Part shown: piece by piece, positions 18,110 through 64,000 of the stretch
Layout: every line of letters starts with the position of its first letter
How positions within the stretch are numbered: position 1 is the stretch's first letter
From: Verrucomicrobiales bacterium
GTDB taxonomy: Bacteria > Verrucomicrobiota > Verrucomicrobiia > Limisphaerales > UBA11358
Direction: 5' to 3'
DNA length: 64,000 nucleotides
NCBI GenBank assembly: GCA_028712475.1
Contig: JAQTQB010000004.1
Location: 67,368-131,367 of the forward strand
Notes under the pieces: generated by a model
What the model was told of the DNA's origin: nothing
Databases searched by the model: none
The model's input: only the letters and a program-made list of their open reading frames with translations
Translations under genes and position numbers: made by a program

Positions 18110-18137
18110 GTTGAGGGTTGAGGGTTGAAAGTTGAAG
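18110..18137. repeat. Heptanucleotide tandem array (4 units)
   Basis: gttgagg gttgagg gttgaaa gttgaag. Confidence 0.8.
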
Positions 18138-24660: not shown

Positions 24661-24761
24661 AAATTCCGGTTTTGCCGGATCCGTGGAACCCGGATGTCGC
24701 GCGGGAATTCCGGCATGTTCGCGGACAAATGGCAGCCGCCGTTCGTGAACCAGTCCTCTCT

Positions 24762-37641: not shown

Positions 37642-38070
37642 GCAAGTCAGGCAAATCGTAAGCCGCAGAAGATTTTAAGCAAGGTCTTTGCAGGCGGCCA
37701 CCTGTAAACAAGCTGAATGTTGAAAGTTGAGAGCCGGGCGTGGGGCAAGAATCCAGACACCAGACGCCGGTCCGCGACCGTGTGCTGATCATTCGTTGAG
37801 GCCCCAGCGATGGATGCCCTCAATCCGGGAGAAGTCGGTTTCCGGTCGCACCAATGGCTTGGCGACGCCAGCCTGGCCGCCGGCCGGCACCGACAGGGTG
37901 GCAAGCCGGGGCGTTGACGCCCTGGAGGCGACAATCATTCCGGCGGACATCACGAAGGTGAGCAGTAAAATCCGGGCCGGAGCTTTCAATGATTTCTGGC
38001 GCAACATCGTCCTTATTGGAACCCGGCGGGCGAAAATCGTTCAATCATTGATGAGGCACAGGCCGGCTGA

Positions 38071-49218: not shown

Positions 49219-49289
49219 CCATCTTTTCGTCTGCGCCATGCCGCGCAAGCAACCAGAAGGCGAGTTGGTCTTTAGGCTGTTCGCATTGT

Positions 49290-51455
49290 TTATTTGTCCG
49301 GCGGTGCGGGCGCAGGTGATTTCGACTCCGATTCCATCTGCGCCTGAAGCCCGCGATGATCCACCTTGCCGGTGCCGAGTTTCGGAATCTCTTTCACCGC
49401 CTTGATCTCGCGCGGCACGGAGAGATTCGTCAATCCCCTGGCTTTGATGGCGTCGCGGATTTCGTCCAGGGTCAGCTTCGGCTCGTTCGTCACGGCGATG
49501 AGCATTTCCCCTTTGTTTTCATCGGGACGCGTGACGACGGCGATCTGGCAGCGCAGACCGTATTGCGGAAACGCCCCGGCCAGCGCGTCTTCCACCGCCG
49601 TAAGGCTCACCATCTCGCCGCTCACCTTGGCGAAGCGTTTCATCCGCCCGCGGATGTGCAGATAGCCTTCGGCATCCACGCTCACGATGTCGCCGGTGTC
49701 ATACCATCCGCCGAGGGCCAGGAATTTTGCGTTCGCGTCGGCGTTCAAGTAGCCTTTCATCACGTTCGGCCCGCGCACGAAGAGGCGTCCGCCTTCGTCC
49801 ACGCCTTCGACTTTTTCCAGCTTGCATTCCATGCCGGGCAGGAGCCGGCCCACGGAGCCATTGCGCGGCTCGAGCGGCGTGTTGACACTCACGCACGGGG
49901 CGCATTCCGTCGCGCCATAACCTTCGAGGATGCGCACGCCGTATTTTTGCGACCACGCGAGCGCGGTGGCTTCCTGCAATTTCTCGGCGGCGGAAAAAAG
50001 ATACCGCAGGCTGCGAAAGTCATAGGGATGGGCCTTGCGGGCGTAGCCGTTCAGGAAGGTGTTCGTGCTGATGAACACCGTGCAATCACGGTCGTAAAAC
50101 ACCGATGGCACCACGCGATAATGCAGGGGGGAAGGATAAAGGAAGACATAGATGCCGCGCACCAGCGGCACAAACGTCCCCACGGTGAGGCCAAAGCTGT
50201 GAAAGAGCGGGAGACAGTTGAAGAGGCGGTCGCGGTCGGTGAAATCCGTGACGGCCAGCATCTGGCGGATGTTGGCGAGGATGTTTCCGTGAGTCAGTTC
50301 AACGCCCTTGGGCACGCCTTCGGAGCCGCTTGTGAAAACAATCACGGCGGCGGAGCTGGCAGATGGAGGATGGAGGATGGAGGATGGAAGATGGAGAATA
50401 TGCCGGAGCAGCGTGAGGAATTTCCGGGGACTGCTTACGCCAGCTTGCGCGTCTTCGAGATAGATCACGCTGACGCCCGCTTTGATAAAATCGTCCACGT
50501 TGAGCCGGGCGCGTTCGAGAAAGGCGCGCGAAGTGATGATGTGTTTCAGTCCGGCGAGTTCCACGCACGCCAGCATGGTGGGCATGCCCGAGGAAAAGTT
50601 CAGCATGGCGGGCACTTTGCCCAGCCGCCACAAGGCGAGGATGACCACCGGCGTGGCGTTGACATTGGGCAACAACAGGCCAATGCGTCCGCCACCCGCA
50701 ACGGTGCCGCGCAACGCGTGCGCCAGCACATCCGCCCCCACCATCAGTTTCCGACAGGTCAGCTTTTGCAGCGTCGCGTCTTCGAGAATGATTTGGCCCG
50801 GGCGTTCGCGTGCGGTCTCCGCCACCGCAGAGAGGACATTCTGCGCGCCGAAATTCATCTCGACCTCGAACTGCTGCCGCACCATCTGGTCGCGGAGCCA
50901 GATGGTCAGCCGCGACCGTGCGCGGCCGGTGCTGACTTCCCCCAGCTCGGGCGCGGCCAGCGCGGCGCTGAAATGCGCGGTCACTTTGGGGAAACATTTT
51001 TTCCAGCCCGGATTGGGTGAATACGGCAGGCGTTCGGCGCCGCGCAAGTAGGCCGTGATGACGCGCGCCTTGGTTTTGAAAATCAAAAATCCCGTGCCAT
51101 CAAAAAGCTTCATCAAGTCACCCGTGCGAGAGAGGCGGCCTTCGGCAAAAAGCACGAGCCGCCCGCCGCCTTTAAGAAACTCCGCCATGCGCTTCACTGC
51201 ATAAGGCGAACCGGGATCAACGGGCAGGGTGTAATGGTTGATCATCAATTTACGATGCAGCCAGCTCGTCTGCGCCGCGATGCTCGAGGTGACGAACTTC
51301 CAATCATCCTCCAGGCAGACCCAGAGAAACAGCCAGTCAAACCAGGAGCAGTGATTGGGGATCAACAGCACCGGGCCGGGTGTTTTCAGCGCGTCCAGGT
51401 CATAAGCCCGAAAGCGAAACAAAACCTGGAGCAAAAAGCGGAAGCAAGTTTTCAT
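49290..51455 (-). CDS. aas: Bifunctional acyltransferase / acyl-ACP (AMP-dependent) synthetase, Aas-like
   Basis: The N-terminal LPLAT has LIPNHCSWFDWLFL and FAEGRLSRTG. The C-terminal adenylation domain has IVFTSGSEGVPKGVELTH, EGYGATE, YDTGD and GTGKVDHR. The heptamer-array-derived LPSSILHPPS precedes the AMP motif. ATG at 51455; a TTG at 51494 is also in frame. Confidence 0.88.
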   Translation of the reverse strand: MKTCFRFLLQVLFRFRAYDLDALKTPGPVLLIPNHCSWFDWLFLWVCLEDDWKFVTSSIAAQTSWLHRKLMINHYTLPVDPGSPYAVKRMAEFLKGGGRLVLFAEGRLSRTGDLMKLFDGTGFLIFKTKARVITAYLRGAERLPYSPNPGWKKCFPKVTAHFSAALAAPELGEVSTGRARSRLTIWLRDQMVRQQFEVEMNFGAQNVLSAVAETARERPGQIILEDATLQKLTCRKLMVGADVLAHALRGTVAGGGRIGLLLPNVNATPVVILALWRLGKVPAMLNFSSGMPTMLACVELAGLKHIITSRAFLERARLNVDDFIKAGVSVIYLEDAQAGVSSPRKFLTLLRHILHLPSSILHPPSASSAAVIVFTSGSEGVPKGVELTHGNILANIRQMLAVTDFTDRDRLFNCLPLFHSFGLTVGTFVPLVRGIYVFLYPSPLHYRVVPSVFYDRDCTVFISTNTFLNGYARKAHPYDFRSLRYLFSAAEKLQEATALAWSQKYGVRILEGYGATECAPCVSVNTPLEPRNGSVGRLLPGMECKLEKVEGVDEGGRLFVRGPNVMKGYLNADANAKFLALGGWYDTGDIVSVDAEGYLHIRGRMKRFAKVSGEMVSLTAVEDALAGAFPQYGLRCQIAVVTRPDENKGEMLIAVTNEPKLTLDEIRDAIKARGLTNLSVPREIKAVKEIPKLGTGKVDHRGLQAQMESESKSPAPAPPDK
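50362..50396. repeat. Heptanucleotide tandem array (5 units) inside aas
   Basis: gatggag gatggag gatggag gatggaa gatggag. Confidence 0.85.
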
Positions 51456-51737
51456 CGTTTTGGGAAGTGCATCATTGGGGAGCGAACACTTCAATCAAAT
51501 TTGTGCCGTTTTGGTAGCATCCCATGGCACATGCCAGGTTTTCTCGTGCAATATGGCGATGTGAAATGGAACATGTTTTCCAGAATTGAAAATCAACCGT
51601 CCCGATGAATCACCAGCCGTGAAACATAATCATAACCACGACAACGCCCCTGGCGCCGGCAACTGGTGGAAGGGAACGGCGTGGCATGGCGCAAGATTGA
51701 GTTCACGAGGAACGCTTGGCCAGCAGTTGATCGGTGA

Positions 51738-51908
51738 CACCTTCTTCGCCTCGTAATTGCCGAAGCCGATAATGCGCCCGTCCTCGACCGCGACATGAGT
51801 CCTGTGGATTTCGCCGCTGAACACGTTGACGACGCGGGCGTTTTTGAAAAGCAGCTCGGCGCGTTGTTCACCGCGCGCCACGGAAAGTTTCTGCTGGATG
51901 TTGCGCAT
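51738..51908 (-). pseudogene. N-terminal relic (about 57 codons) of adenine deaminase
   Basis: MRNIQQKLSVARGEQRAELLFKNARVVNVFSGEIHRTHVAVEDGRIIGFGNYEAKKV follows the Ade N-terminal pattern (A-D-L-x-x-K-N-x-R-V-V-N-V-F-T-G-E-I ... V-A-I-x-D-G-R-I-x-G-x-G-x-Y). Similarity stops before the metal-binding HxH region. Confidence 0.55.
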
Positions 51909-51973
51909 TTGTTTTCCCCCCTCTCGCGTCAAAGTAAAATTTTAATGCGCAGATTAAAAGCCGCAAATTTCAA

Positions 51974-53035
51974 ATGAGGAATGGCAGGCCGATGCTGCAA
52001 TTCCATTCGTTATTTGTCATTCGTCATTCTGGACGCTACGCTTTGCCTGTGACCGATTCCATCTTCCAATCACTTGCCGCCGCCGCGCGTGGCGGCGAAT
52101 CCGTCGCGCTCGGCATCATCACCGCCGTGAAAGGGTCGAGTCCGCAGAAGCTCGGCGCGAAGGCGCTGTTTTATCCCGACCGGAAAATCAAAGGCACGCT
52201 CGGCGGCGGCTGTCTGGAGGCCGAGGCGCAGCGGCTCGCCCTCAATTCGCTCAAGACCGGCAAGCCGGAATCTTTTGAACTCGTCCTTGACCACGATTTC
52301 GGCTGGGACGACGGCCTGATCTGCGGCGGGAAAGTTTTGGGCGTTATTTTGCCCAACGCGCAGCGGCTCGGCGAAAAATTCTGGAGTGAACTGGCCGAAC
52401 GCCACGCAGCTAAAATTTGGGGTGTAAGAAAGGATTTTTCAATCGCCTCCCCCGGCCCGGCTCTCAAACCTCAAACCTCAAACCTCAACCCTTCCGACTG
52501 GCTCTACACCGAAACCATCACGCCGTCGTGCGCGTTGTGGATAGCCGGTTCCGGCCACATCGCCCAGGCCGTCGCGCCGCTGGCCTTGCAACTGGATTTC
52601 GCCGTCACGATTTTTGACGACCGTCCTGAACTGGCGAACCACGAAATATTTCCGCGCGATGTTTCCATCCACGTCGGCAACTGGGGCGATCTGTGCGCCG
52701 CTCCGCTTCCCAATGTGCCGGCGTTTGGCCTCATCGTCACACGTGGACACAAGCACGACGCGCTCGTGCTGGAGACGTGGATTCACAGGCCGTTCCGATT
52801 CCTCGGCATGATCGGCAGCACCCGCAAGGCGCGGACGATTGCCGAGCACTTCGTGAAAAAGCAGATTGCCACCGCCGAAGAAGTCGCGCGCGTCGCTTGT
52901 CCGGTCGGAATAAAAATCCGCTCGCAAAGCGTGATGGAAATCGCCGTGGACATCCTGGCGCAATACATAGACAAGCGGGCGGAACTGGTGAGCGAGAAGC
53001 AAGCTGCGGCGGCGGGAAAAATTGAATTGGTCTAG
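51974..53035 (+). CDS. xdhC: XdhC/CoxI-family molybdenum-cofactor insertion accessory protein
   Basis: ..GESVALGIITAVKGSSPQKLGAKALFYPDRKIKGTLGGGCLEAEA.. and the C-terminal Rossmann-like part LWIAGSGHIAQAVAPLA..IVTRGHKHD. The start is uncertain because the first codons run through a heptamer array. A second array is in frame at 52463..52490. Confidence 0.88.
   Translation: MRNGRPMLQFHSLFVIRHSGRYALPVTDSIFQSLAAAARGGESVALGIITAVKGSSPQKLGAKALFYPDRKIKGTLGGGCLEAEAQRLALNSLKTGKPESFELVLDHDFGWDDGLICGGKVLGVILPNAQRLGEKFWSELAERHAAKIWGVRKDFSIASPGPALKPQTSNLNPSDWLYTETITPSCALWIAGSGHIAQAVAPLALQLDFAVTIFDDRPELANHEIFPRDVSIHVGNWGDLCAAPLPNVPAFGLIVTRGHKHDALVLETWIHRPFRFLGMIGSTRKARTIAEHFVKKQIATAEEVARVACPVGIKIRSQSVMEIAVDILAQYIDKRAELVSEKQAAAAGKIELV
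52004..52031. repeat. Heptanucleotide tandem array (4 units) at the 5' end of xdhC
   Basis: cattcgt tatttgt cattcgt cattctg. Confidence 0.75.
52463..52490. repeat. Heptanucleotide tandem array (4 units) inside xdhC
   Basis: ctcaaac ctcaaac ctcaaac ctcaacc, the reverse complement of the gtttgag/gttgagg type seen at 18110..18137. It is translated as LKPQTSNLNP. Confidence 0.85.
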
Positions 53036-53036
53036 C

Positions 53037-56000
53037 TTACTTGGCCAAAACCAGATCCGGCTTCGGTGATTCTTTGCTGTCCACGTCTCGTTGCTCCTGA
53101 ATCGCCATCCAGATCGCCTCGCAAGTCGCGGGTGACGCTAGCGCCACCTCACCTTTGCCTGAACCAAACGCCGCCACGGCATCACGGATCGCCTCGCGCA
53201 CCGAGATGGCCAGCATCAACGGCGGTTCGCCCACGGCTTTGCTGCCATGAACAACGCTTTTCTGCGTCGCGTTCTTGAGCAAGGTCACTTTGAAGATTTG
53301 CGGCGTGTCACCGATGGACGGGATTTTGTAGGTGTCCGGTGAATGCGTGAGCAAAACCCCTTGGTCATCCCACTTCAATTCCTCGGCCGTGAGCCAGCCC
53401 ATGCCTTGCACGAAGCCGCCTTCGATCTGGCCGCGATTCACGCCTTCATTCACCGAGTCGCCCACGTCATGCAAAATGTCCACGCGCAAGACGCAGTGCA
53501 TTCCCGTGAAGCCATCCACCTCGACCTCCGTCACCGCCGCGCCGTTTGCAAAATAATGAAACGGCTTGCCATGTCCCGCCGCGCGATCCCAATGAATCCC
53601 CGGCGTCGCATAATATCCCGTCGCCAGCAAGCTCACGCGCGACAAATAGGCTTTCTTCACGACATCGGCGAAGGAAATTTTCACGTCTGGCAGCGTGCGA
53701 TGAAAAGAAAATCCGTCGGCGAAAACCAAATCCTCCGCAGCAGCCGGCGTAAGGAGGCTCTGAGCGCTTTCGTTTTCCGCTTTTGATTTGAGCCTCGTCA
53801 CCTCGGCTGCTACGAGTTCAAGAGCCGCCGGCGTCAGCCGCGCTCGCAAAATTTCGCACGCATTTTTCACCGCCGCGCCGTTCAAGTCCGTGCCCGCGCT
53901 CGCCGCCGTGGCGGAAGTGTTCGGCACTTTGTCCGTGCTGGTCGGCATCACGCGGATATTCTCCAGCTTCACGCCGAGCGTTTGCGCCGCGATCATCGCC
54001 ACGTTCGTGTGCAATCCCTGCCCCATCTCCGTGCCGCCGTGGTTCAACTGCACCGTGCCGTCCTGATAAATCAAAATGAACGCGCCCGCTTGATTCATAT
54101 GCGTGACGGTAAAACTGATGCCGAATTTCACCGGCGTGATGGCAATGCCTCGTTTGGTGTGAGGATGCCTTGCGTTCCAGTCAGCGATTTCCTTGCGGCG
54201 TTTTTCCAGCTCGGAAGTTTTTTTCAACTCGTGCCAGATGGTCTGGATCCGATTGTCTTCAATCTCCTGCCCGTAGTGCGTGGTGTTCGTCTCACCGCTG
54301 CCACGGTAAAGGTTTCGTTCGCGGACAACTTCCGGTGGCAGGCCGAGCCTGCGCGCGATACGGTCGAGGATTTCTTCCATGACCAGCATGCCCTGCGGCC
54401 CGCCGAAGCCGCGAAATGCCGTGTTTGATGACAGATTTGTTTTTGCAACCTGCCCGCGAAACTCCACCGCCGGAATATAATACGCGTTGTCGAGATGGAA
54501 CAGCGCGCGGTCGGTCACGGCCTGCGACAAATCCTGCGACCAGCCGCCATTGGAAGTCAGATGAACTTGCGCCGCCTGCAACAAACCGTCCTTGTCAAAA
54601 CCAACATTAAACTTCGCGAGAAACGGATGGCGATGGCCGGTGAGCGCCATGTCCTGATCGCGATTGAACCGCACGCGCACCGGCTTGCCGGTATGATGCG
54701 TCGCCAGCGCGGCCAGCGCGGCAGGTGTGGCCGCCTGCGTTTCCTTGCCGCCGAAACCGCCGCCCATGCGCGGCACTTGCACCACCACCTTGTTCGCGGG
54801 CAGATGCAACACATGAGAAATCACCTGCTGCACCTCCGACGGATGCTGCGTGGACGAAACGACGAACACCGACCCGTCCTCGCCGCGTGTCGCATGCGCC
54901 GCCTGCGTCTCCAGGTAGAAATGTTCCTGACCGCCAAGTTCAAACTCGCCTTCAATTACCAGTGGCGCAGCGGACAAGCCTTTTACTGAATCACCGCGCC
55001 GGATAAAGTTGGGTTCGTTGTGAAAACTCCCTTTTGCCACCGCATCGCGCAATGTGAGAATCGGCGCCAGCGGTTCATATTCAACGACGACCTTCTCCGC
55101 CGCCGCGCGACACGTCTCCTGCGAATCTCCGACGACGAGCGCGACAAGCTGGCTGTGGAAGAGAACTTCGCGCGACGCCAGCAACGGCTCGTCGTGCTTC
55201 GTGCCAACGTCGTTCTCGCCCGGAATGTCCTCGGCAAACAGCACGGCTTTGATGCCGGGCATCTGGCGCGCGGCGGTCGCGTCGCATTTGATAATTTTCG
55301 CCCGCGCGTGCGGCGAGCAGACGGGCCAGACTTCGAGCATGCCGCTGGTCTGGTCATCCACATACATCGCCTCGCCTGTGACGTGTTTGTGCGCGCTTTC
55401 GTGGGGCTGTGCCTGGAGCGCGGACTTCAGGCCGCTTCGACATTCGAGCGGTGACGCGGCATGAACGCTGCGCTCCGATTCGCCGGCGAAAAATTTCCCC
55501 AGCAGACTCGCAATCAAACCGCTGCGGTATTCCGCCGTGCCGCGCACGTCAGAGATGGGCGTGAACTCCGTCCGTAATACCGGCAACGCGCGCTGAATCG
55601 TTTCTTCACTCCAAATTTTGCCAGCCAATGCGGCTTCTGTTTTCCGTGCCCGCGCAGGCATGGCGGCAACGCCGCCGTAAGCGAGCCGCACATGACGCAC
55701 GATGTTCTGTTTATCCAAATCCACCACGAAACACCCGGCCACGGTGCTGATGTCCATCTCGCGGCGTTTGGAAACTTTGAACCACTCCGCCTTGCGCGTC
55801 AGTCCCGCCGCCGCGCCGCCGCGCGGGATGATGATGGTTTTGAGGACTTCGTTTAGTTGCAGCGCAGTCTTTCGATAGGAAATAAAAAAGTCACTGATGG
55901 GCAACGTGCGTTCCCCAGATTCGGATGCAAGCACAACCCTTGCATCCAGCGCGAGCAGCACGGGCGCGCTGTCGCCGATGGGCGAGGCGATGGCGAGGTT

Positions 56001-56978
56001 GCCGCCCATCGTGGCGCGATTACGGATCTGCCGCGAGCCGAACACGCAGAGCATGTCGCCCAGCACGGGAAATTCTTCGCCGAGCCGGTCTTCAATTTCC
56101 GTGAGCGTGACCGCAGCGCCGATGTGCCATTCGCTGGCGGCGCGGCGGATTTTGTTCAAATCCGAGACGGCTTCCACGGAAATCAGCGTGGTGAATTTTT
56201 TGTAGCGCTTGGTGATGTCGAGTCCCATTTCCGTGGCCCCGGCAATGATGCGCGCCTCGGGAAATTTCTTCAGCAGGACGAGAAGTTTGTGCAGCGTGGC
56301 AGGGCGGAAAAAATTTTCCCCGTTAAATTCGTATGCGGCCGCGCCGAGCTTCGCGTCCGATTTTTTCAGGCGGTCGGCAAACATATCTTCGTAGGAGCCG
56401 ACGTCAGGAGGCTCTGACTGTTTCCCATTTCCGCTTTTGATTTGAGCCTCGTCACCTCGTCTCCTACAGGAAAAAGCTTCCACCGCCGCGTCACGGATTG
56501 AACGATACCCGGTGCAGCGGCAGAGATTGCCGGCAAGTTGTTCGTCGAGATCGCCGTGCGTGTGAAGGTCGTCGCGATAGTAGCCCTCGAACATCGAGCA
56601 GATGAAGCCGGGCGTGCAATAGCCGCATTGCGAGCCGTGAAGTTCGACCATGGCGTGCTGCACCGGATGTAATCCCGAAAGCGCGGAGTGCGGAGTGCGG
56701 AGTGTGGAATTACAAACACCTTCAGCGCTTACCACCTCGCGGCCCGCGAGCAGGCAGACGGGCATGAGGCAACTGTTCACCGCGCGATAAGTTGGCTTGC
56801 CGTTCGCGCCGCGCTCGACAATGGCGACGGAGCACGCGCCGCAATCGCCTTCGGCACAGCCTTCCTTCGATCCGGTGAAGCCGGAACTGCGGAGAAATTC
56901 AAGCAGCGTCGTGTTGGGAGAAGTGTTCTCAACGCAAACCGGCTGGCCGTTCAAAATGAATTCAAATGCGCCGGACAT
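53037..56978 (-). CDS. Xanthine dehydrogenase, single polypeptide (2Fe-2S + FAD + molybdopterin domains fused)
   Basis: 1313 aa. Motifs: GCAEGDCGACSV and HGSQCGYCTPGF (the two 2Fe-2S centres), the FAD domain (..IIAGATEMG..GGNLAIASPIGD..) and the Mo domain (..GGGFGGKE.., ..FRGFGGPQG.., ..GTEMGQG.., ..KAVGEPP). Three repeat-derived in-frame segments are present. Confidence 0.93.
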   Translation of the reverse strand: MSGAFEFILNGQPVCVENTSPNTTLLEFLRSSGFTGSKEGCAEGDCGACSVAIVERGANGKPTYRAVNSCLMPVCLLAGREVVSAEGVCNSTLRTPHSALSGLHPVQHAMVELHGSQCGYCTPGFICSMFEGYYRDDLHTHGDLDEQLAGNLCRCTGYRSIRDAAVEAFSCRRRGDEAQIKSGNGKQSEPPDVGSYEDMFADRLKKSDAKLGAAAYEFNGENFFRPATLHKLLVLLKKFPEARIIAGATEMGLDITKRYKKFTTLISVEAVSDLNKIRRAASEWHIGAAVTLTEIEDRLGEEFPVLGDMLCVFGSRQIRNRATMGGNLAIASPIGDSAPVLLALDARVVLASESGERTLPISDFFISYRKTALQLNEVLKTIIIPRGGAAAGLTRKAEWFKVSKRREMDISTVAGCFVVDLDKQNIVRHVRLAYGGVAAMPARARKTEAALAGKIWSEETIQRALPVLRTEFTPISDVRGTAEYRSGLIASLLGKFFAGESERSVHAASPLECRSGLKSALQAQPHESAHKHVTGEAMYVDDQTSGMLEVWPVCSPHARAKIIKCDATAARQMPGIKAVLFAEDIPGENDVGTKHDEPLLASREVLFHSQLVALVVGDSQETCRAAAEKVVVEYEPLAPILTLRDAVAKGSFHNEPNFIRRGDSVKGLSAAPLVIEGEFELGGQEHFYLETQAAHATRGEDGSVFVVSSTQHPSEVQQVISHVLHLPANKVVVQVPRMGGGFGGKETQAATPAALAALATHHTGKPVRVRFNRDQDMALTGHRHPFLAKFNVGFDKDGLLQAAQVHLTSNGGWSQDLSQAVTDRALFHLDNAYYIPAVEFRGQVAKTNLSSNTAFRGFGGPQGMLVMEEILDRIARRLGLPPEVVRERNLYRGSGETNTTHYGQEIEDNRIQTIWHELKKTSELEKRRKEIADWNARHPHTKRGIAITPVKFGISFTVTHMNQAGAFILIYQDGTVQLNHGGTEMGQGLHTNVAMIAAQTLGVKLENIRVMPTSTDKVPNTSATAASAGTDLNGAAVKNACEILRARLTPAALELVAAEVTRLKSKAENESAQSLLTPAAAEDLVFADGFSFHRTLPDVKISFADVVKKAYLSRVSLLATGYYATPGIHWDRAAGHGKPFHYFANGAAVTEVEVDGFTGMHCVLRVDILHDVGDSVNEGVNRGQIEGGFVQGMGWLTAEELKWDDQGVLLTHSPDTYKIPSIGDTPQIFKVTLLKNATQKSVVHGSKAVGEPPLMLAISVREAIRDAVAAFGSGKGEVALASPATCEAIWMAIQEQRDVDSKESPKPDLVLAK
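53738..53813. repeat. Palindromic repeat (family C) inside xdh, copy 1
   Basis: gcagcagccggcgtaaggaggctc .. tttccgcttttgatttgagcctcgtcacctcg gctgctac. The 32-mer at 53774..53805 is identical to 56428..56459. It is translated as ..VAAEVTRLKSKAENESAQSLLTPAAA.. Confidence 0.8.
56392..56467. repeat. Palindromic repeat (family C) inside xdh, copy 2
   Basis: gtaggagccgacgtcaggaggctc + spacer + gagcctcgtcacctcgtctcctac. It shares the exact 32-mer with copy 1 but sits in a different codon phase (offset 2654 nt, which is 2 mod 3). It is translated as ..RRGDEAQIKSGNGKQSEPPDVGSY.. Confidence 0.85.
56683..56710. repeat. Heptanucleotide tandem array (4 units) inside xdh
   Basis: gcggagt gcggagt gcggagt gtggaat. 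It is translated on the minus strand as ..NSTLRTPHSALSG.. between the two Fe-S motifs. Confidence 0.85.
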
Positions 56979-56984
56979 ACATGT

Positions 56985-57389
56985 TCAACAACGTGACTGA
57001 ATCCACTTTGTCACTTTCTCGTGAATTTGATTGATCCAATCTTTTTCAAAGTCTTCGGTAACCGAAGGCAGCCTTTCATTGATTTTGGCGAGCGCATAAT
57101 CGTCAAAGTGATTCATTTGATCCATAAATCCCAAAACCGAAAGCCTGATGTGTTTCAATGGATGACCAAGATGACTGATAATCTCATGTCTGACTTCGTC
57201 AGAATCAATCTTGGAAAGGAAAAGCAGACCCATTTCAAGATGTTGTCCATCCCATCGCTTGGAATTCTTTCTGAAATAATTGAGGCAATCAGGCGGTAAA
57301 TTGCCTTCTTTTGCGATGGTTGCCGCGTAAAGCCCCAAAGGGATTCGACTTAATTGTTCAAATTGTTCCGGGTCGAATTTGTCGCTCAT
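56985..57389 (-). CDS. Hypothetical protein (134 aa), AT-rich orphan
   Basis: Clean ORF MSDKFDPEQFEQLSRIPLGLYAATIAKEGNLPPDCLNYFRK... It is clearly AT-richer than both neighbours and is wedged between xdh (6-nt gap) and the M20 hydrolase gene (7-nt gap). I recognise no motif. Confidence 0.55.
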   Translation of the reverse strand: MSDKFDPEQFEQLSRIPLGLYAATIAKEGNLPPDCLNYFRKNSKRWDGQHLEMGLLFLSKIDSDEVRHEIISHLGHPLKHIRLSVLGFMDQMNHFDDYALAKINERLPSVTEDFEKDWINQIHEKVTKWIQSRC

Positions 57390-57396
57390 AGATTGC

Positions 57397-58644
57397 CTAT
57401 TTAGACTTTATCCACCCCATCGCCTTCTCCGCCAGCTTGTCGAACGCGGCCACGCAGAGTTCGAGATGTTCTTCCTTCGTGTCCTCGATCTTGTTGTGGC
57501 TGATGCCGTGCAGGCTTTGGACAAACATCATCACGGTCGGCACGTCCGCGCGCGCGACTTCGGCGGCGTCGTGCAACGGGCCGCTCGGCAGACGATGCGA
57601 TTGGCCGCAGGTTTCGCGTATTGATTCGTCGCACAGCGCGATGAGTTCGTCGTTGAACGGACGTGGGTCAATTTGCCAGAGGCGTTCCCACAAGACTTTC
57701 ACGTTGCCTTCCTTGGCGAATTTTTCGCTGGCGTCCTTCGCTTCCTGCAACATTTTTGCAAGCACGGCGGCTTCAAGATGGCGCTGGTCGAGCGTGATCC
57801 GACATTCCTCCACGACGCTGGTGACGATGCCGGGTTTGGTTGTGCAAGAGCCAATGGTGCAAACGCCGTTGCCGCTGCGCCCGGCGATTTTGTAAATCTC
57901 CTGGCTCATTTTCGCCGCAGCGAGAAAAGCGTCTTTGCGGCGGTTCATCGGCGTGCTGCCGGAGTGCGCGGCCTGGCCGTGAAACGTGATGGCATGACGT
58001 TCAACGCCGAACGTGCCAAGCACCGCGCCGAGCGGCAAACCTAAATCCAAAAGCACCGGCCCTTGTTCAATGTGCAATTCCAGATACGCGGCGGCATTTT
58101 TTAATTCCTTGCCAGAATCTTTCACGCGCTCGAAATCTATGCCGACATCTTTCAAAGCATCAGGCAGTTTGATTCCCTGCTTGTCCACCAGCCCACGCGC
58201 TTCGTTCATGTCAAGATTGCCGGAGCAGGCGGAGGAGCCGAACAGACTTTTACCGAACCGCGCCCCTTCTTCATCGGCCCAATCAACGAGACGCACGGTG
58301 ACAGGCGGCTTGCCGTGGTATTGCGCGTTGATACGGCGGAGAATCTCCACGCCCGCAAGAACATTGAGGCAACCATCGAGCCAGCCGCCGTTCGGCACAG
58401 AATCCATGTGCCCGCCGATGAGCAGGCACTTTTCTGATTCGCCGCACAAGGTGAACCATGTGTTGCCCGCCGCGTCGTCATGGATTTCGAGCGGCAGACT
58501 CTCTGCCTGTTTCCGCAGCCACGCACGCGTCTTCACCCACATCGGCGTGAAGGCGACGCGTTGCGCGCCGTTTTCGTCGCTGGTGAGGGCGCGAAGTTCT
58601 TTCAGTTCGGCAACGGTGCGTTTTGGGTTCAGCGTTGGATTCAT
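57397..58644 (-). CDS. M20-family amidohydrolase (beta-ureidopropionase / N-carbamoyl-amino-acid hydrolase type)
   Basis: ..ENGAQRVAFTPMW..IGGHMDSVPNGGWLDGCLNVLAG..DWADEEGARFG..LELHIEQGPVL..GQAAHSGSTPM..SGPLHDAAE.. It sits next to pyrimidine-degradation genes, hence the beta-alanine synthase suggestion. Confidence 0.8.
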   Translation of the reverse strand: MNPTLNPKRTVAELKELRALTSDENGAQRVAFTPMWVKTRAWLRKQAESLPLEIHDDAAGNTWFTLCGESEKCLLIGGHMDSVPNGGWLDGCLNVLAGVEILRRINAQYHGKPPVTVRLVDWADEEGARFGKSLFGSSACSGNLDMNEARGLVDKQGIKLPDALKDVGIDFERVKDSGKELKNAAAYLELHIEQGPVLLDLGLPLGAVLGTFGVERHAITFHGQAAHSGSTPMNRRKDAFLAAAKMSQEIYKIAGRSGNGVCTIGSCTTKPGIVTSVVEECRITLDQRHLEAAVLAKMLQEAKDASEKFAKEGNVKVLWERLWQIDPRPFNDELIALCDESIRETCGQSHRLPSGPLHDAAEVARADVPTVMMFVQSLHGISHNKIEDTKEEHLELCVAAFDKLAEKAMGWIKSK

Positions 58645-58738
58645 GCCCGCTGTTATTTATTCCTTTTGTGCAAAATTATTGTAGCCAATGCGCCCAAAGC
58701 GAGTTAAAAGTTGAAAACAATTAACAAGGGAAGATGTT

Positions 58739-59866
58739 ATGCCGACACTAGCCACAACCATAGACGGACTTAAATTGCCCAACCCGTTCATCATCGGATC
58801 AGGCCCGCCGGGAACCAATCTCAATGTCATCGCCCGCGCTTTCAAGGAGGGCTGGGGCGCGGTCATCGCCAAAACGGTGAGCCTCGACGCGTCGAAAGTC
58901 GTCAACGTCACGCCGCGTTACGGCAAGCTGCATTCCAGCGACGGCAAGGAAGTCATCGGCTGGGAAAACATCGAACTGATCAGCGACCGGCCTTTCAAGA
59001 TCTGGGAGGAGGAGTTCAAAAAGTGCAAGGACATGTTCCCCGACCGCATCCTCATCGCGTCCATCATGGAGGAGTATCGCAAAGACGCGTGGATTGAAAT
59101 CGTTGAGCGCTGCCAGGCGTGCGGCGTGGATGCGTTCGAGCTGAACTTCTCGTGCCCGCACGGCCTGCCCGAACGCAAGATGGGCGCGGCAATGGGTGAG
59201 AACCCGGAGATCCTCGAAGAAGTGTGCGGCTGGGTGAAGAGCGCGGCGAAGATTCCATTTTGGGCGAAGATGACACCGAACGTCACGCACATCGAAGATC
59301 CAAGTCGCGCATCGCTCAAAGGCGGCGCGGCCGGCATCAGCGCCATCAACACCATCCGCAGCGTCATCGGTGTGAACCTTGATACGCTCCGGCCCGAACC
59401 GAATGTCGAGGGTTACACCACGCCTGGCGGCTATTCCTCAAGGGCCGTGAAGCCGATTGCGCTCCGCATGGTCATGGAAGTTGCGCAACTCATCCGCAGC
59501 GAATTCCCGGATCGTTCGCTGTCGGCCATCGGCGGCGTCGAGAACGGCAAGGACGCGGCGGAGTTCATTTTGCTGGGCGCGGACACCGTGCAAGTCTGCA
59601 CCGGCGTGATGAAGTTCGGTTACGAAATGGTGAAGCCCATGTGCGGCGAACTGCTCGCGTTCATGGAGAAGCACAAATTCGAGACGCTCGCCGATTTCAA
59701 GGGCAAGAGCCTCGATTATTTCACCACGCACGCCGACCTCGTCAAACGCCAGACCGAACGCAAGGCCACGCAAAAAGCCGCTGCTGCCGCCAAAGTCGTC
59801 AAAGCCGACGGCGAATGGAGCGGTGATGAATTCGTGAAACAATCGGATGCGTTGTCGAGGGGATGA
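58739..59866 (+). CDS. Dihydropyrimidine dehydrogenase-like flavoenzyme (PreA/DHOD family, without the C-terminal ferredoxin domain)
   Basis: ..LKLPNPFIIGSGPPGTN..GWGAVIAKT..ELNFSCPHG..ISAINT..GGV..GADTVQVCT.. is a class 1 DHOD/DPD TIM-barrel pattern. It sits in the pyrimidine catabolic context. Confidence 0.8.
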   Translation: MPTLATTIDGLKLPNPFIIGSGPPGTNLNVIARAFKEGWGAVIAKTVSLDASKVVNVTPRYGKLHSSDGKEVIGWENIELISDRPFKIWEEEFKKCKDMFPDRILIASIMEEYRKDAWIEIVERCQACGVDAFELNFSCPHGLPERKMGAAMGENPEILEEVCGWVKSAAKIPFWAKMTPNVTHIEDPSRASLKGGAAGISAINTIRSVIGVNLDTLRPEPNVEGYTTPGGYSSRAVKPIALRMVMEVAQLIRSEFPDRSLSAIGGVENGKDAAEFILLGADTVQVCTGVMKFGYEMVKPMCGELLAFMEKHKFETLADFKGKSLDYFTTHADLVKRQTERKATQKAAAAAKVVKADGEWSGDEFVKQSDALSRG

Positions 59867-59874
59867 AGCGCCAG

Positions 59875-59963
59875 GCTCCAACATCCAAGTTTCGGAGAAG
59901 CTCCAAACTTCAACGTCCAATCGGAAGCGCGCACCGCCAGGTTTGGAGCTTGGAACTTGGAGC
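59875..59963. repeat. Inverted pair of heptamer arrays (Ntccaa units vs ttggagc units) in the intergenic region
   Basis: Left: gctccaa catccaa .. gctccaa acttcaa cgtccaa. Right: ttggagc ttggaac ttggagc. gaagctccaaac and gtttggagctt can pair as a long hairpin just upstream of the mmsA ATG. Confidence 0.75.
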
Positions 59964-59971
59964 TTTTTAAC

Positions 59972-61468
59972 ATGGCTATGCTCGAACCTTGTCCCAATTT
60001 CATCGGCGGCGAATGGATTGAATCCAAAACCGCGCGCACGCCGGTTTTCAATCCCTCCATCGGCGAAGTGATTTCTGAATGTCCGGTCGGAAATGTCGCT
60101 GATGCAAATGCCGCAGTCGAGGCCGCGCACGCCGCATTTCCCGCGTGGATGGAAACGCCGCCCGTCGAACGCGCGCGGATTCTTGGCCGCTTCAAATTTT
60201 TGATGGAGGATAATTTTGAGGATATTGTCCGCAGCAACACCCGCGAGCACGGCAAGACGCTGGTGGAATCGCGCGGTGATGTGAAGCGCGGCATGGAAGT
60301 CATCGAGTTCGCGCTCGGTGTGCCGTCGTTGATGATGGGTGAGGTGCTGGAGAACATCGCGCGCGGCATTGATTGCGAGGCGATCCGCCAGCCGCTCGGC
60401 GTTTGCACCGGCATCACGCCGTTCAATTTTCCCGCGATGGTGCCGCTCTGGATGTATCCCATCGCCATCGCGTGCGGCAACACATTCGTCCTCAAGCCGA
60501 GCGAGAAAGTTCCGCTCACCGCCCTCAAGATCGCGAAGCTGCTCGAAAAGGCCGGTCTGCCGAAAGGCGTGCTGAACATCGTCCACGGCGGACGCGAAGT
60601 CGTGGACGCATTGCTCACGCATCCGAAAGTGAAGGCGATTTCGTTCGTCGGCTCGACGCCGATTGCGCGTTACATTTACGAAACCGGCACGAAGCACGGC
60701 AAACGCGTGCAATCCAACGGCGGCGCGAAGAATTACGTCATCATCATGCCCGACGCCGACGTGGAAAACTCCACGCGCGGTGTCATCGAAGCGGCGTTCG
60801 GCTGTGCGGGCGAGCGCTGCATGGCCGGTTCAACGGCTGTCGTCGTTGGCGGTGCGGAAAAATCTGTCTTGCCCACTCTCATTGAAGCCACGCGCAAAAT
60901 CAAAGTCGGCCCGACCGACCGCGAAGCGCAACCGGACATGGGCGCGGTCATCACCCGCCAGCATCGCGACCGCGTTCTGGAATTGATTGAAGCCGGCGTG
61001 AAGGAAGGCGCAAAGATTCCCGCCGACGGGCGCGGCGTGAAAGTCAATGAAGCACCGAATGGTTTCTACGTCGGCGCAACAATTCTCGATCACGTCCAAA
61101 CCGGCATGATCGTGGCGAAAGAGGAAATTTTTGGCCCGGTGCTGAATGTGATGCACATGGAAGATTTGGACGCGGCGATTGAACTAGCAAATAAATCGGC
61201 CTACGGCAATGGCGCCTCCATCTTTACCCGCTCCGGCAAGGCGGCACGCGAGTTTAAGCATCGCGTCAACTGCGGCATGGTCGGCATTAACATCGGCGTG
61301 CCCGCCTCGATGGCCTGGTTTCCATTCAACGGCTGGAACGAATCGTTCTTCGGCGACCTGCACATGCAAGGGCGCGAAGGCGTGCAATTTTTCACGCAGC
61401 AGAAAGTCACCACCAGCCGCTGGTTCAGCTACGGCGAGGGGGACATCTGGCATACGGAAAATAAGTGA
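59972..61468 (+). CDS. mmsA: CoA-acylating methylmalonate/malonate-semialdehyde dehydrogenase
   Basis: ..FIGGEW..FNPS.GEVI.., ..ITPFNFPAMVPLWM..ACGNTFVLKPSE.., ..GAKN.., ..FGCAGERCMA.. (catalytic Cys context) and the C-terminal ..GINIGVP..FPFNGW..SFFGDLH.. ATG at 59972. Confidence 0.92.
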   Translation: MAMLEPCPNFIGGEWIESKTARTPVFNPSIGEVISECPVGNVADANAAVEAAHAAFPAWMETPPVERARILGRFKFLMEDNFEDIVRSNTREHGKTLVESRGDVKRGMEVIEFALGVPSLMMGEVLENIARGIDCEAIRQPLGVCTGITPFNFPAMVPLWMYPIAIACGNTFVLKPSEKVPLTALKIAKLLEKAGLPKGVLNIVHGGREVVDALLTHPKVKAISFVGSTPIARYIYETGTKHGKRVQSNGGAKNYVIIMPDADVENSTRGVIEAAFGCAGERCMAGSTAVVVGGAEKSVLPTLIEATRKIKVGPTDREAQPDMGAVITRQHRDRVLELIEAGVKEGAKIPADGRGVKVNEAPNGFYVGATILDHVQTGMIVAKEEIFGPVLNVMHMEDLDAAIELANKSAYGNGASIFTRSGKAAREFKHRVNCGMVGINIGVPASMAWFPFNGWNESFFGDLHMQGREGVQFFTQQKVTTSRWFSYGEGDIWHTENK

Positions 61469-61492
61469 CGAGCGATATGTGATGAGTGACGA
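61465..61492. repeat. Heptanucleotide array (4 units), left flank of the four-helix-bundle gene
   Basis: gtgacga gcgatat gtgatga gtgacga. It is the inverted counterpart of 61925..61952. Confidence 0.8.
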
Positions 61493-61508
61493 GTTTCCAA
61501 ATCGGACT

Positions 61509-61922
61509 ATGAACGCGAATGGCAAGGCGCAGAGTTATCACGACTTGCTGGTTTGGCAGAAAGGCATTGCGCTCGCAAAGATGATTTACAAGATCACCGG
61601 CGAATTTCCGTCCGAAGAAAAGTTTGGGCTGATTTCACAAATGCGCCGGGCGGCGGTTTCCGTTCCCTCAAACATCGCCGAAGGCCAGGCACGCCATACA
61701 ACCGGCGAGTTCGTTCTATTTATTTCCCATGCCGGGGGTTCGCTTGCCGAACTAGATACGCAATTGACTCTCGCAACCGAACTCAATCTTTTACCCGCTG
61801 TTCAGGCCAAACCCTGCGCTGACTCGATTTCTGAACCGCGCCGGATGCTAAATGGTCTTCGCCGTGTTGTGAACGGGCAGAAGCCCGCAGCACCCAACTC
61901 CAAACTTGCAGCTCGTCGCTAA
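61509..61922 (+). CDS. Four-helix-bundle protein (23S rRNA intervening-sequence-protein family, TIGR02436-like)
   Basis: ..SYHDLLVWQKGIALAKMIYKITGEFPSEEKFGLISQMRRAAVSVPSNIAEGQARHTTGEFVLFISHAGGSLAELDTQL.. is the canonical pattern. ATG at 61509; an ATG at 61482 inside the heptamer array is also in frame. Confidence 0.9.
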   Translation: MNANGKAQSYHDLLVWQKGIALAKMIYKITGEFPSEEKFGLISQMRRAAVSVPSNIAEGQARHTTGEFVLFISHAGGSLAELDTQLTLATELNLLPAVQAKPCADSISEPRRMLNGLRRVVNGQKPAAPNSKLAARR

Positions 61923-61924
61923 AA

Positions 61925-61952
61925 CTCATCACTTATCACACATCACATGTCA
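61925..61952. repeat. Heptanucleotide array (4 units), right flank of the four-helix-bundle gene; overlaps the dihydropyrimidinase start codon
   Basis: ctcatca cttatca cacatca catgtca. Its reverse complement (tgacatg tgatgtg tgataag tgatgag) mirrors 61465..61492. Confidence 0.8.
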
Positions 61953-63329
61953 CTAGTAATTAAAAACGGCGAAATCGTTACCGCGAGCGAACGCTACGTC
62001 GCGGACATCTTCTGCGAGAACGAGACCATCACACGCATTGACCGCAGTATCACGCCGCCCAAGGGCGCGGAGGTGATTGATGCGAGAGGCAAGTTCGTTT
62101 TCCCCGGCTTCATTGACCCGCATGTCCATATTTACCTGCCGTTCATGGGCACGTTTTCCAAGGACGATTACATCACCGGCAGTGAGGCCGCGCTGATTGG
62201 CGGCACGACAACTCTGATCGAAATGTGCTGCCCGGCGCGCAAGGACGATGCGTTGGAGAGTTTCGAGCTTTGGATGAAGCAGGCGGTTGGCAAGTCCGCG
62301 TGCGACTTTTCGTTCCACATGGGCGTGACGAAGTTTGATGACAAATCGGAGAAGCAGCTCCGCGAAATCGTGAAGCGCGGCATCAGCTCGTTCAAAATCT
62401 TCCTTGCCTACAAAGGCGCGTTCGGCGTGAATGACACGGAACTGTATCGCACGCTCAAGCTCGCGAAGGAACTTGGCGTCATCGTCACCGCGCATTGCGA
62501 GAACGAAACGCTTGTCAGCGAACGCTGCAAGGAATTGATCGCCGCCGGCAAGACCGGTCCGGGCCAGCATCACGAAAGCCGCCCGCCCGCCGTCGAAGCC
62601 GAGGGCGTGCATCACTTGATGACGTTTGCCGAACTCACCGGCGCGGCGACTTACATCGTCCACTTGAGTTGCAAGGAAGCGCTCGATCAGGCCATCGCTG
62701 CCCGCCAACGCGGTGTGCGCGTCACTGTCGAAACGCTCATCCAATATCTCACGCTCGACAAAACCTACGCGGAAAAACCGAAGTTCGAGGGCGCGAAATT
62801 CGTGATGTCGCCGCCGTTGCGCGACAAAAGTAACCAGCCGGTTCTCTGGAACGGCCTGCGCGACGGGCTGATTCAAACCGTCGCCACGGATCACTGCCCG
62901 TTCGATTTTAAGACCCAGAAGCCGATGGGAAAAAATGATTTCACCAAGATTCCCAACGGCATCCCGTCACTGGAGGAACGCATCAACCTGCTTTACACCT
63001 ACGGCGTGAAGACGGGCAAGATTGACCTGCACACGTTCGTGAACGTCGCCAGCACGCAGGTCGCAAAGACCTTCGATCTGTTTCCGCGCAAAGGCACGAT
63101 CCAGCCCGGCGCGGATGCCGACCTTGTGGTGTTCGATCCGGATTATCGCGGGAAAATTTCCGTGAAGACGCAGCACATGAACGTGGATTACAGCGCGTTT
63201 GAAGGCTGGAAAATCGAAGGCCGTCCCAGCGTCGTCACCGTGCGCGGACAAGTCGCCGTTCGTGATGGCAAATTCGTCGGCAAGCACAGCCACGGGAAAT
63301 TCCTCCAGCGCAAGCCGAGTCATTTTTAA
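61947..63329 (+). CDS. Dihydropyrimidinase (D-hydantoinase)
   Basis: ..PGFIDPHVHIYLPFMGT..GGTTT.., FKIFLAYKG (carboxylated Lys context), ..VTAHCEN.., ..YIVHLSC.., ..VATDHCPF.. 460 aa. Confidence 0.93.
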   Translation: MSLVIKNGEIVTASERYVADIFCENETITRIDRSITPPKGAEVIDARGKFVFPGFIDPHVHIYLPFMGTFSKDDYITGSEAALIGGTTTLIEMCCPARKDDALESFELWMKQAVGKSACDFSFHMGVTKFDDKSEKQLREIVKRGISSFKIFLAYKGAFGVNDTELYRTLKLAKELGVIVTAHCENETLVSERCKELIAAGKTGPGQHHESRPPAVEAEGVHHLMTFAELTGAATYIVHLSCKEALDQAIAARQRGVRVTVETLIQYLTLDKTYAEKPKFEGAKFVMSPPLRDKSNQPVLWNGLRDGLIQTVATDHCPFDFKTQKPMGKNDFTKIPNGIPSLEERINLLYTYGVKTGKIDLHTFVNVASTQVAKTFDLFPRKGTIQPGADADLVVFDPDYRGKISVKTQHMNVDYSAFEGWKIEGRPSVVTVRGQVAVRDGKFVGKHSHGKFLQRKPSHF

Positions 63330-63332
63330 CGC

Positions 63333-64000
63333 ATGAGTCCTCTTTCCAGCGGCCTTACTACCAACGCCCCTGATGTCGAGGCTGACATCGAGCAAAGCCG
63401 GCTGTTCAACGCCGACCTCGCGCCCGTGCCGCAATCGCGGCGCAAGTGGGGCATGTTGAGCTTCGCCGCGCTGTGGATTTCCATGTCCGCGTGCATCCCG
63501 ACCTACATGCTCGCGTCGGGGATCATCGGCGGCGGCATGAACTGGTGGCAGGCCATCCTCACCATTTTTCTCGGCAACCTCATCGTGCTCATCCCGATGA
63601 TCCTCAACGCGCACGCCGGAACGCTTTACGGAATTCCGTTTCCGGTCTATTGCCGCGCATCGTTCGGAACGAAGGGCGCGAATGTGCCGGCCATTCTCCG
63701 CGCGCTCGTTGCGTGCGGCTGGTTCGGCATCCAGACGTGGATTGGCGGCGAGGCGATCTACAAAATCTGCGTGACGATCTTCAACCTGCATCCCGCGCCG
63801 GCGACGAACTGGCTGGGCATCACGGGCGGACAATTCCTCTGCTTTCTGTTTTTCTGGGGCGTCAACATGTGGGTGATTTATCGCGGCATCGAGACGATCC
63901 GCTGGCTGCTGAACATCAAGGCACCGCTGTTGCTCGCGCTCGGATTGCTGCTGCTGTGGTGGGCGTGGCGCGCGGCGGGCGGCTTCGGACCGGTCCTGTC
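63333..64000 (+). CDS. NCS1-family nucleobase/hydantoin:cation symporter (5' part; the gene runs off the window)
   Basis: My translation from ATG 63333: MSPLSSGLTTNAPDVEADIEQSRLFNADLAPVPQSRRKWGMLSFAALWISMSACIPTYMLASGIIGGGMNWWQAILTIFLGNLIVLIPMILNAHAGTLYGIPFPVYCRASFGTKGANVPAILRALVACGWFGIQTWIGG... These are typical NCS1 N-terminal motifs. It is open to the end of the window. Confidence 0.88.
   Translation, partial: MSPLSSGLTTNAPDVEADIEQSRLFNADLAPVPQSRRKWGMLSFAALWISMSACIPTYMLASGIIGGGMNWWQAILTIFLGNLIVLIPMILNAHAGTLYGIPFPVYCRASFGTKGANVPAILRALVACGWFGIQTWIGGEAIYKICVTIFNLHPAPATNWLGITGGQFLCFLFFWGVNMWVIYRGIETIRWLLNIKAPLLLALGLLLLWWAWRAAGGFGPVL

Follow-up and report, generated by a model that had tools for sequence, protein, structure and literature searches.

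Heptanucleotide repeats have been known since 1990, when they were described as short tandemly repeated repetitive (STRR) sequences, and to our knowledge they have no accepted origin or role. Small in-frame inserts in conserved genes are known as well, i.e. the Rickettsia palindromic elements (~100–150 nt) and the cyanobacterial small dispersed repeats (21–27 nt), which are tolerated in surface loops and have fixed sequences, in contrast to the periodic modules defined by architecture that are the subject here. The finding that heptamers are the most over-represented class of bacterial long simple sequence repeats (SSRs), and the idea of slippage as their cause, go back to Mrazek 2007, as cited in PMC4692102 and PMC4679880. 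A further precedent is the intervening sequence (IVS) in the 23S rRNA of Coxiella burnetii, which is regarded as a selfish element and has three GACAGAT units, variable between strains, at its 5′ stem and RNase III site (PMC4990558). Here we analyse heptanucleotide (7-nt) tandem arrays in 64,000 nt of the Verrucomicrobiales bacterium assembly GCA_028712475.1 (contig JAQTQB010000004.1, positions 67,368–131,367, in our numbering G000:C2:67368-131367), henceforth "the window". Several of these arrays lie in the conserved genes aas, xdhC and xdh, and our literature search found no report of heptamer arrays in Verrucomicrobiota.

The host is a soil Verrucomicrobium, represented by a Limisphaerales metagenome-assembled genome (MAG; G000) of 3.40 Mb, with 57.5% GC, 29 contigs and 98% completeness. 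Its relatives are Limisphaerales / Verrucomicrobia subdivision 3 MAGs, from which homologous loci (L-numbers) and congener or relative genomes (G032, G040, G065, G066, and G067) were taken. In the loci of the relatives xdhC does not adjoin aas, and the orthologues of the two genes were therefore sought separately.

The arrays belong to a family of modules, each with four or five tandem heptamers, that is lineage-wide in these Limisphaerales. Our preferred reading, which we hold with moderate confidence, is that they form a single genome-wide family of ~30-bp modules, and that the copies within genes, including the focal array in xdh, are old in-frame loop inserts related to cassettes that carry a PF05635 gene (23S_rRNA_IVP, "23S rRNA IVS protein").

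Tandem Repeats Finder (TRF) was applied to the window and to the genome, and the strings in the window were also read directly. A sequence-only reading had listed the arrays of the window and likened them to the STRR; TRF recovered them, and direct reading gave the same unit strings (Table 1). Genome-wide, 348 period-7 arrays with at least 3 copies were found, compared to 9–22 in each of six Markov simulations (orders 1, 3, and 5), and 278 arrays with at least 3.7 copies, compared to 0–5. At periods 6, 8, and 9 the corresponding numbers of arrays with at least 3.7 copies were 46, 10, and 13, versus 278 at period 7. The arrays are thus strongly non-random, and the likeness to the STRR was borne out, in that they are heptameric, dispersed, and numerous in the genome. 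The number of unique arrays is 338 in 3.4 Mb. Their density is 1.0 per 10 kb, versus 1.1–1.3 in the loci of the relatives. Three weaker items had also been listed, of which two are remnants with 2–3 units and the third, at 21–39, mixes periods 6 and 7. The letters at 16–36, at the window edge, read GGTTTAG GTTTAG GTTTTAG; this run resembles telomeric TTTAGG repeats and has a period of 6 in part and 7 in part.

The copy number distribution bears on the simplest alternative, i.e. that pure polymerase slippage generates heptamers in place from chance duplications and also maintains them, 7 nt suiting the replicative polymerase, and that no mobile element is involved. The over-representation of period 7 alone is in agreement with this proposal. 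However, perfect two-copy heptamers are not in excess (274 vs 272 expected), the copy number has a sharp peak at 4–5 units even between genes, and array length shows a second mode at 30–33 bp. Only 11 arrays exceed 5.5 copies, one of them with 35. The chance level of two-copy heptamers and the 30–33-bp mode indicate that the arrays look started at ~4.5 units and then decayed, rather than grown from duplications. Furthermore, the ~100 unit classes are strongly clustered (AATCCGC 24 arrays, AACATCC 20, AAAAATT 19, AAATCGT 18), forming discrete multi-locus families, and their expansions are lineage-specific: (CAATCCG)3 is found at ~20 loci in the window genome and (CTCCATC)3 at ~11, versus 0–1 in each of four congeners for both. 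Taken together with the inverted pairing described below, these results make slippage as the sole cause unlikely. The sole long expansion of the genome, a 35-copy AACGTCC array with 90% matches, is located outside the window (G000:C25:24822-25069) and adjoins a GTTGAGA array at 24737–24763.

The focal array lies in xdh (53037–56978, minus strand), which encodes a single-chain xanthine dehydrogenase (XDH) of 1313 aa. The two 2Fe-2S domains, the FAD domain, and the Mo-cofactor domains are united in one chain, a fused architecture as in eukaryotic XDH and not one of separate XdhA/XdhB, and the congener open frames are likewise 1306–1350 aa long. The sense strand of the array reads AATTCCA followed by three CACTCCG units and is translated in frame into NSTLRTPHSA (residues 90–99), which forms part of the loop between the two 2Fe-2S domains (Pfam: Fer2 8–74, Fer2_2 101–165). 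The array represents an insert of ~27 nt, and the loop is 8 aa longer than that of the R. capsulatus XDH (2w3r_A). The orthologue in L049 shares all four units, that in L053 is limited to two (AACTCCG), and that in L050 has five, together with a nested hairpin; in L052 and L054 the array is absent. Between the loops with two and four units the difference in length is 21 nt, i.e. three units. Unit numbers of 0, 2, 4, or 5 among congeners show that the arrays are mutable and that the surviving products are in frame. Slippage would account for these numbers and for the 21-nt difference. The xdh unit (ACTCCGC class) matches a PF05635 cassette elsewhere in the genome (C18:50239). In L050 (G032, ~1900–1990) a short palindrome of the GTAGC type, CCCTCCGTAGCAGAGCTACTGCGGAGG, is nested in frame in the heptamer array, suggesting that such arrays are targeted by a second family of small repeats or tolerate it.

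Of the two xdhC arrays, one encodes residues 164–173 (ALKPQTSNLN) in the linker between the XdhC_CoxI and XdhC_C domains. This linker is 27 nt longer than in orthologues without an array; in relatives it contains a complete in-frame (GTGACGA) hairpin (L033) or other palindromes (L035, L042). An in-frame array with 8-nt units, CCCACTTT x3, is present at the same site in L027 (G040). The other array had been placed at the 5′ end of xdhC. It is indeed near the start, but outside the gene: it ends 18 nt upstream of the annotated GTG (52049) and belongs to the leader and not to the coding region. The annotated public product has 328 aa, and homologues align only from residue ~21–30.

The aas array allowed the most extensive comparison. 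It encodes residues 367–378 of a 734-aa acyltransferase/AMP-binding protein, within the AMP-binding domain (Pfam); on the sense strand it consists of five CTCCATC units, one of them a variant, and the peptide is LHLPSSILHPPS. In 25 distinct orthologues from genomes and metagenomes, the site, the length, and the heptamer register are all identical. Eleven of the 25 are clearly periodic, with units that differ: CTCCATC in the window, CGCACTC in L058 and L056, CGCAATC in L002, L065, and L066, GGCAATC in L004, and GCCAATC in L012. The first unit is TTC(A/C)(A/C)TC in nearly all orthologues, and only decayed sequence is left at the site in several lineages. The units of one array have an identity of 0.84, compared to 0.63 for units in the same position in different species and 0.77 for the flanks; the aas array thus undergoes concerted evolution under fixed length. 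Local slippage or repair would be compatible with this behaviour. In the window genome and in G066 the aas unit belongs to a multi-locus family of the same genome.

Genome-wide, ~180 arrays reside within open reading frames (ORFs) of 128 genes, and every frame is open, with none broken; those of the window occupy loops or linkers. The array-bearing genes include mfd (six arrays), hypF (four), priA, which contains an entire hairpin in frame, and a gene for a P-type ATPase (three), in addition to xdh, xdhC, and aas; the genes seen are housekeeping genes, and not surface or restriction-modification genes, as judged from gene examples rather than from a systematic functional tally. The mfd arrays occupy four variable loops, in which congeners have nothing, other arrays, or decayed arrays, and throughout the genus insertions are concentrated in the N-terminal variable loops of Mfd, which are hot spots in this respect. 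The six arrays of this gene (G000:C27:166692-170219) belong to five unit classes, and five of them fall in the first 370 residues. Where neither strand of a unit contains a stop, the sense strand of in-ORF arrays is A+C-rich in 60 cases and G+T-rich in 18 (p = 2e-6). The residues specified by A+C-rich units are Pro, Ser, Thr, Gln, Asn, and His, compared to Gly, Val, Trp, Cys, and Phe for their complements, suggesting that selection acts on the encoded peptide.

These results also bear on the proposal that the arrays are contingency loci, at which gain or loss of units would switch aas, xdhC, and xdh on and off. The sequence-only reading had put this forward with the argument that seven is not a multiple of three, so that one unit more or less would shift the frame. 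The arithmetic is correct, and unit number does change over evolutionary time in xdh. In contrast, none of the ~180 in-ORF arrays is associated with a gene in the OFF state, the targets are housekeeping genes including mfd with its six arrays, the arrays are short and often imperfect, and length and register are fixed in the 25 aas orthologues. In addition, none of five arrays differed in length between contigs from different samples that are 99.7–99.9% identical, albeit in a small sample. One extra public (Logan) contig, from a cluster look-up of the three proteins, is 100% identical over 2816 nt and thus carries no population information; the species is nearly unique in that collection. The public contig that carries this xdhC stems from run SRR22315508. 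A change by one or two units would fuse long ORFs at 18 arrays. These 18 computational candidates for frameshifted genes were rejected, none being convincing: the ten same-strand fusions, read in translation, turned out to be separate neighbouring genes or shadow frames, and the separate genes comprised the small and large terminase subunits, a transglycosylase next to LpxC-FabZ, and two genes of a BatA-type cluster. Contingency loci are therefore very unlikely.

The second type of evidence for a module family is the pairing of arrays. An inverted partner arm within 90 nt was found for 133 of the 338 arrays (39%), versus 1% in the null, and more often for intergenic arrays (58%) than for arrays deep in coding regions (14%). 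The paired form is a hairpin of ~95 nt, e.g. (AACATCC)x5, a GC-rich loop of 20–30 nt, and (GGATGTT)x5, and the polarity of the arms is constant within each unit family. Both the frequency of partner arms and their constant polarity count against slippage.

A gene-less hairpin of this kind is present in the window between the genes for a dihydroorotate dehydrogenase-family protein (DHOdh) and an aldehyde dehydrogenase (Aldedh). Its left arm is of the GCTCCAA/CATCCAA type, its right arm is (TTGGAGC)x3, the partner-arm score is 0.78, and it ends 6 nt before the Aldedh ATG (59972).

The third type of evidence is the connection with PF05635. The genome has 14 PF05635 genes, of which 11 are bracketed by inverted heptamer arms (at least 14/21 on each side, with a null of 3% per side), and each of these cassettes has its own arm unit. 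In the five of the 14 copies that were read base by base, the cassettes are next to or between ORFs and not in helix 25 or 45 of the 23S rRNA, and in several of them the stop or start codon of a neighbour abuts an arm. The window contains such a cassette between the genes for Aldedh and an amidohydrolase. The amidohydrolase start codon lies within the right arm (CACATCAC ATG TCAC), leaving no ribosome-binding-site spacer outside the stem. Of 321 arrays without a neighbouring PF05635 gene, 113 (35%) fall in the exact unit classes of the cassette arms (P ~3e-5); of the 12 cassette units tested, 10 are shared with at least one such array. For example, the unit class of the solitary array at 18110 recurs in the arms of the cassette at G000:C25:20527. 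The bracketing of PF05635 genes by arms and the sharing of their units with other arrays again argue against slippage alone. A weak PF05635-like gene of the type "four-helix-bundle + suffix" is located at 35634–35846 of the window (G000:C2:103001-103213) and lacks heptamer arms.

Table 1. Heptamer arrays, hairpin and cassette in the window (positions in the window; TRF, Tandem Repeats Finder; read, direct reading of the string).
Feature	Position	Strand	Remarks
Remnant, 2–3 units of GTTGAGG/GTTGAAA type (GTTGARR)	5393-5410	+	intergenic
GTTGAGG x2.7 (TRF); units GTTGAGG x2, GTTGAAA, GTTGAAG	18110-18128 (TRF), 18110-18137 (read)	+	solitary, intergenic
Remnant, 2–3 units, GTTGAAA GTTGAGA (GTTGARR type)	37715-37735	+	intergenic
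aas array, GATGGAG x5	50362-50396	-	TRF, score 63
xdhC leader array, CATTCGT x3.7 (TRF), degenerate	52004-52029 (TRF), 52004-52031 (read)	+	TRF
xdhC linker array, CTCAAAC x4.3 (TRF); (CTCAAAC)x3 + CTCAACC (read)	52463-52492 (TRF), 52463-52490 (read)	+	TRF and read
xdh array (focal), GCGGAGT x3.7	56683-56708 (TRF), 56683-56710 (read)	-	TRF and read
Gene-less hairpin	59875-59965		fills the gap between the DHOdh and Aldedh genes
Right arm of the gene-less hairpin, TTGGAGC x3.3	59943-59965		TRF
Cassette left arm, GTGACGA/GTGATGA-type units	61465-61492	+	starts directly after the Aldedh stop codon; degenerate, 14/21 positions match at lag 7
Cassette cargo, PF05635 gene, Avd-like four-helix bundle, 137 aa	61509-61922	+	Pfam E = 7e-34
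Cassette right arm, CTCATCAC/ATCACAC units, inverse of the left arm	61925-61952	+	overlaps the amidohydrolase start codon 61947
Cassette right arm as called by TRF (period 14)	61927-61953		TRF

The sites of the two window elements were compared in congeners. At the Aldedh-amidohydrolase junction, L093 and L098 are empty (stop codon, TTT, ATG), L091 and L094 have gene-less hairpins of other units, L099 has other palindromes, and L097 has an orthologous cassette (PF05635 protein ~71–74% identical, GTGACGx arms). A different PF05635 cassette with CGAATGA/TCATTCG arms is present in L092 (~2995–3560), where the gene is 66% identical to a paralogue at G000:C9:538382, and L100 (G032) has a four-helix-bundle "suffix" gene (L100:1131-1343). 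The latter is 84.5% identical to the copy at 35634–35846 of the window, indicating that this gene also moves between stop-start junctions. At the DHOdh-Aldedh junction, L098 is empty, L100 and L102 have hairpins of the same family as the window, and in L097 arms of the same family enclose a PF05635 gene.

A functional explanation would be that the elements act in cis. The stems could be RNase III processing or stability sites, or the heptamers could bind one protein monomer per unit, either as sites of a global regulator, as proposed for Geobacter, or of the cold-shock type; copies within genes would then act on the mRNA. This is suggested by the location of hairpins exactly between stop and start codons, which they can bring together, by the tandem heptamers at the RNase III site of the Coxiella IVS, by the putative regulatory annotation of comparable Geobacter elements (PMC2700814), and by the aas site, which keeps its periodicity and not its sequence. 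However, there are congeners that share the operon and have nothing at these junctions, in several lineages the arrays have decayed and no others have taken their place, and ~100 unit classes argue against a single binding protein.

A further point against a cis role is the location of the arrays. The 338 arrays were assigned to positions deep in ORFs (136), intergenic regions (115), ORF edges (44), the first 40 codons of the maximal ORF (33), and the last 30 codons (10), based on a custom ORF and codon-usage caller (2790 genes, 85.7% coding). Intergenic DNA makes up ~14% of the genome and yet harbours 34% of the arrays. The gaps with arrays are tandem, divergent, and convergent in 70, 16, and 14% of the cases, respectively, versus 68, 17, and 15% for all gaps, so that neither start codons nor terminators are favoured. 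A terminator or promoter role was rejected on the basis of this background-like mix. It also qualifies the earlier remark that several arrays sit exactly at gene 5′ ends, which is true locally, the very short spaces between stop and start codons in operons being filled by the elements, but does not extend to the genome. In sum, we regard a functional cis element as improbable.

Our preferred reading, i.e. one module family with related in-gene copies, can be put into a scenario as follows. The full element is a foldback, in which two mutually inverted modules surround a short loop or a PF05635 gene, and it is placed exactly between the stop codon of one operon gene and the start codon of its neighbour. 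One foldback of each kind is present in the window, at 59875–59965 with a short loop and at 61465–61952 with a PF05635 gene. The copies in aas, xdhC, and xdh are single modules within ORFs. Their persistence there should require a net insert that is a multiple of three, units without a stop in any frame, because translation of a heptamer array passes through all three frames, a hydrophilic peptide, which would explain the A+C-rich sense strand, and a site in a surface loop or linker. After insertion, homogenisation of the units may keep the array periodic, while the reading frame would fix its length; as a consequence, the unit would drift between species and position, length, and register would not. 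The homogenisation could proceed by slipped-strand repair or gene conversion, the modules probably spread as, or together with, the cassettes, and the in-gene copies may well be neutral passengers.

A bolder version of this scenario is that the PF05635 cassettes are the autonomous form of a mobile-repeat system without transposase or reverse transcriptase, which seeds ~30-bp modules that are then homogenised by a dedicated process. In intergenic regions the modules would take the form of paired arms, and in housekeeping ORFs that of solitary in-frame copies. We consider this version doubtful and mention it as a tentative idea.

Several observations weigh against the preferred reading. No enzyme of spread was found; the cassettes carry the PF05635 gene only and no transposase. 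No reverse transcriptase (RVT_1) was found in a search of the 98%-complete genome, and rewriting of arrays by a reverse transcriptase or in the manner of diversity-generating retroelements was rejected for the window genome on this basis. The loops of hairpins of the same family are unrelated in sequence, and the hairpins are thus not simple copy-and-paste miniature inverted-repeat transposable elements (MITEs); a MITE-like non-autonomous transposon was discarded for this reason and because a comparison of occupied and empty junctions revealed no evident target duplications. Two congener PF05635 genes, each ~65% identical to the same paralogue, carry different arms, and a strict pairing of PF05635 clade and arm unit is not supported. 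A cassette cannot pass through an essential ORF, and therefore the solitary in-gene modules need a route of origin of their own. The aas unit is unique in the genome in two congeners (G065 and G067), so that the rule that it always belongs to a multi-locus family of its genome is false, and local homogenisation alone can explain these two cases, in line with slippage. The RNA fold of the hairpin at 59875–59965 (−38.6 kcal/mol, z −2.3) is only moderately better than that of shuffled sequences, and no Rfam match at E ≤ 0.1 was found in the window region 49000–64000, two results that count against a functional cis element as well. Lastly, the genome-wide gene coordinates come from a crude custom ORF caller.

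For annotators, it follows that such arrays should not be read as phase-variation signals. More generally, the arrays represent a real, ordinary-looking, and poorly understood class of repeats, here in a new phylum, which can sit in frame in essential housekeeping genes, several at once, without breaking them. An orthologous in-gene array retains site, length, and register and changes its unit in concert, and the arms of PF05635 cassettes, which are present or missing at identical stop-start junctions in sister species, are built from the same units. The concrete pairs of occupied and empty sites are available for work on the movement of modules. If the seeding of modules by cassettes were true, it would offer a mechanism for the heptanucleotide excess in many phyla (STRR, Xanthomonas, Geobacter, Beggiatoa) and a function for the PF05635 family.

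The comparison with known systems reveals similarities to several of them. With the bacterial heptanucleotide long SSRs of the Mrazek type the arrays have in common the excess of period 7 over other periods and over shuffled sequences. The STRR of heterocystous cyanobacteria and the GGGGAYT / GGGAATC repeats of Nostoc and Xanthomonas (PMC4692102) are also dispersed short 7-nt arrays with few units, include inverted pairs able to form stem-loops, and vary in length and sequence between close species. In contrast, the present family has a Verrucomicrobium as host, ~100 unit classes instead of a few, units that are not G-rich or quadruplex-forming, about half of its arrays inside ORFs, and a link to PF05635 cassettes. 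The commonest units here are not known to be among the specific STRR units.

The elements of Geobacter metallireducens (Gmet_H4##, consensus GGACCGG; class 3, MTYCTGA; PMC2700814) likewise have four or five heptamers, occur within and between genes, and in part form facing pairs. They comprise one or two consensus units, versus dozens here, are annotated as putative regulatory, and their description gives no comparative data that would point to insertion, to concerted evolution, or to a cargo gene. Phase-variable SSR loci (Haemophilus, Neisseria; for a heptanucleotide case see PMC8262952) have in common with our arrays a unit that is not a multiple of three in or next to a gene. Their tracts are long, perfect, and polymorphic, OFF alleles are frequent among them, and the genes concerned are surface or restriction-modification genes, whereas the tracts here are short and lie in housekeeping genes that are all ON.

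A close parallel to the cassettes is the Coxiella IVS, in which the S23p ORF, a member of the PF05635 family, is enclosed by a stem as well (PMC4990558). By titles and abstracts, none of the papers listed in our search of the PF05635 literature concerns heptamer arrays, although the Coxiella IVS paper does describe heptamers beside the S23p ORF. Unlike the Coxiella IVS, the cassettes read here lie between protein-coding genes, both of their arms are arrays of 4–5 units, and gene-less and single-arm derivatives far outnumber the cassettes.

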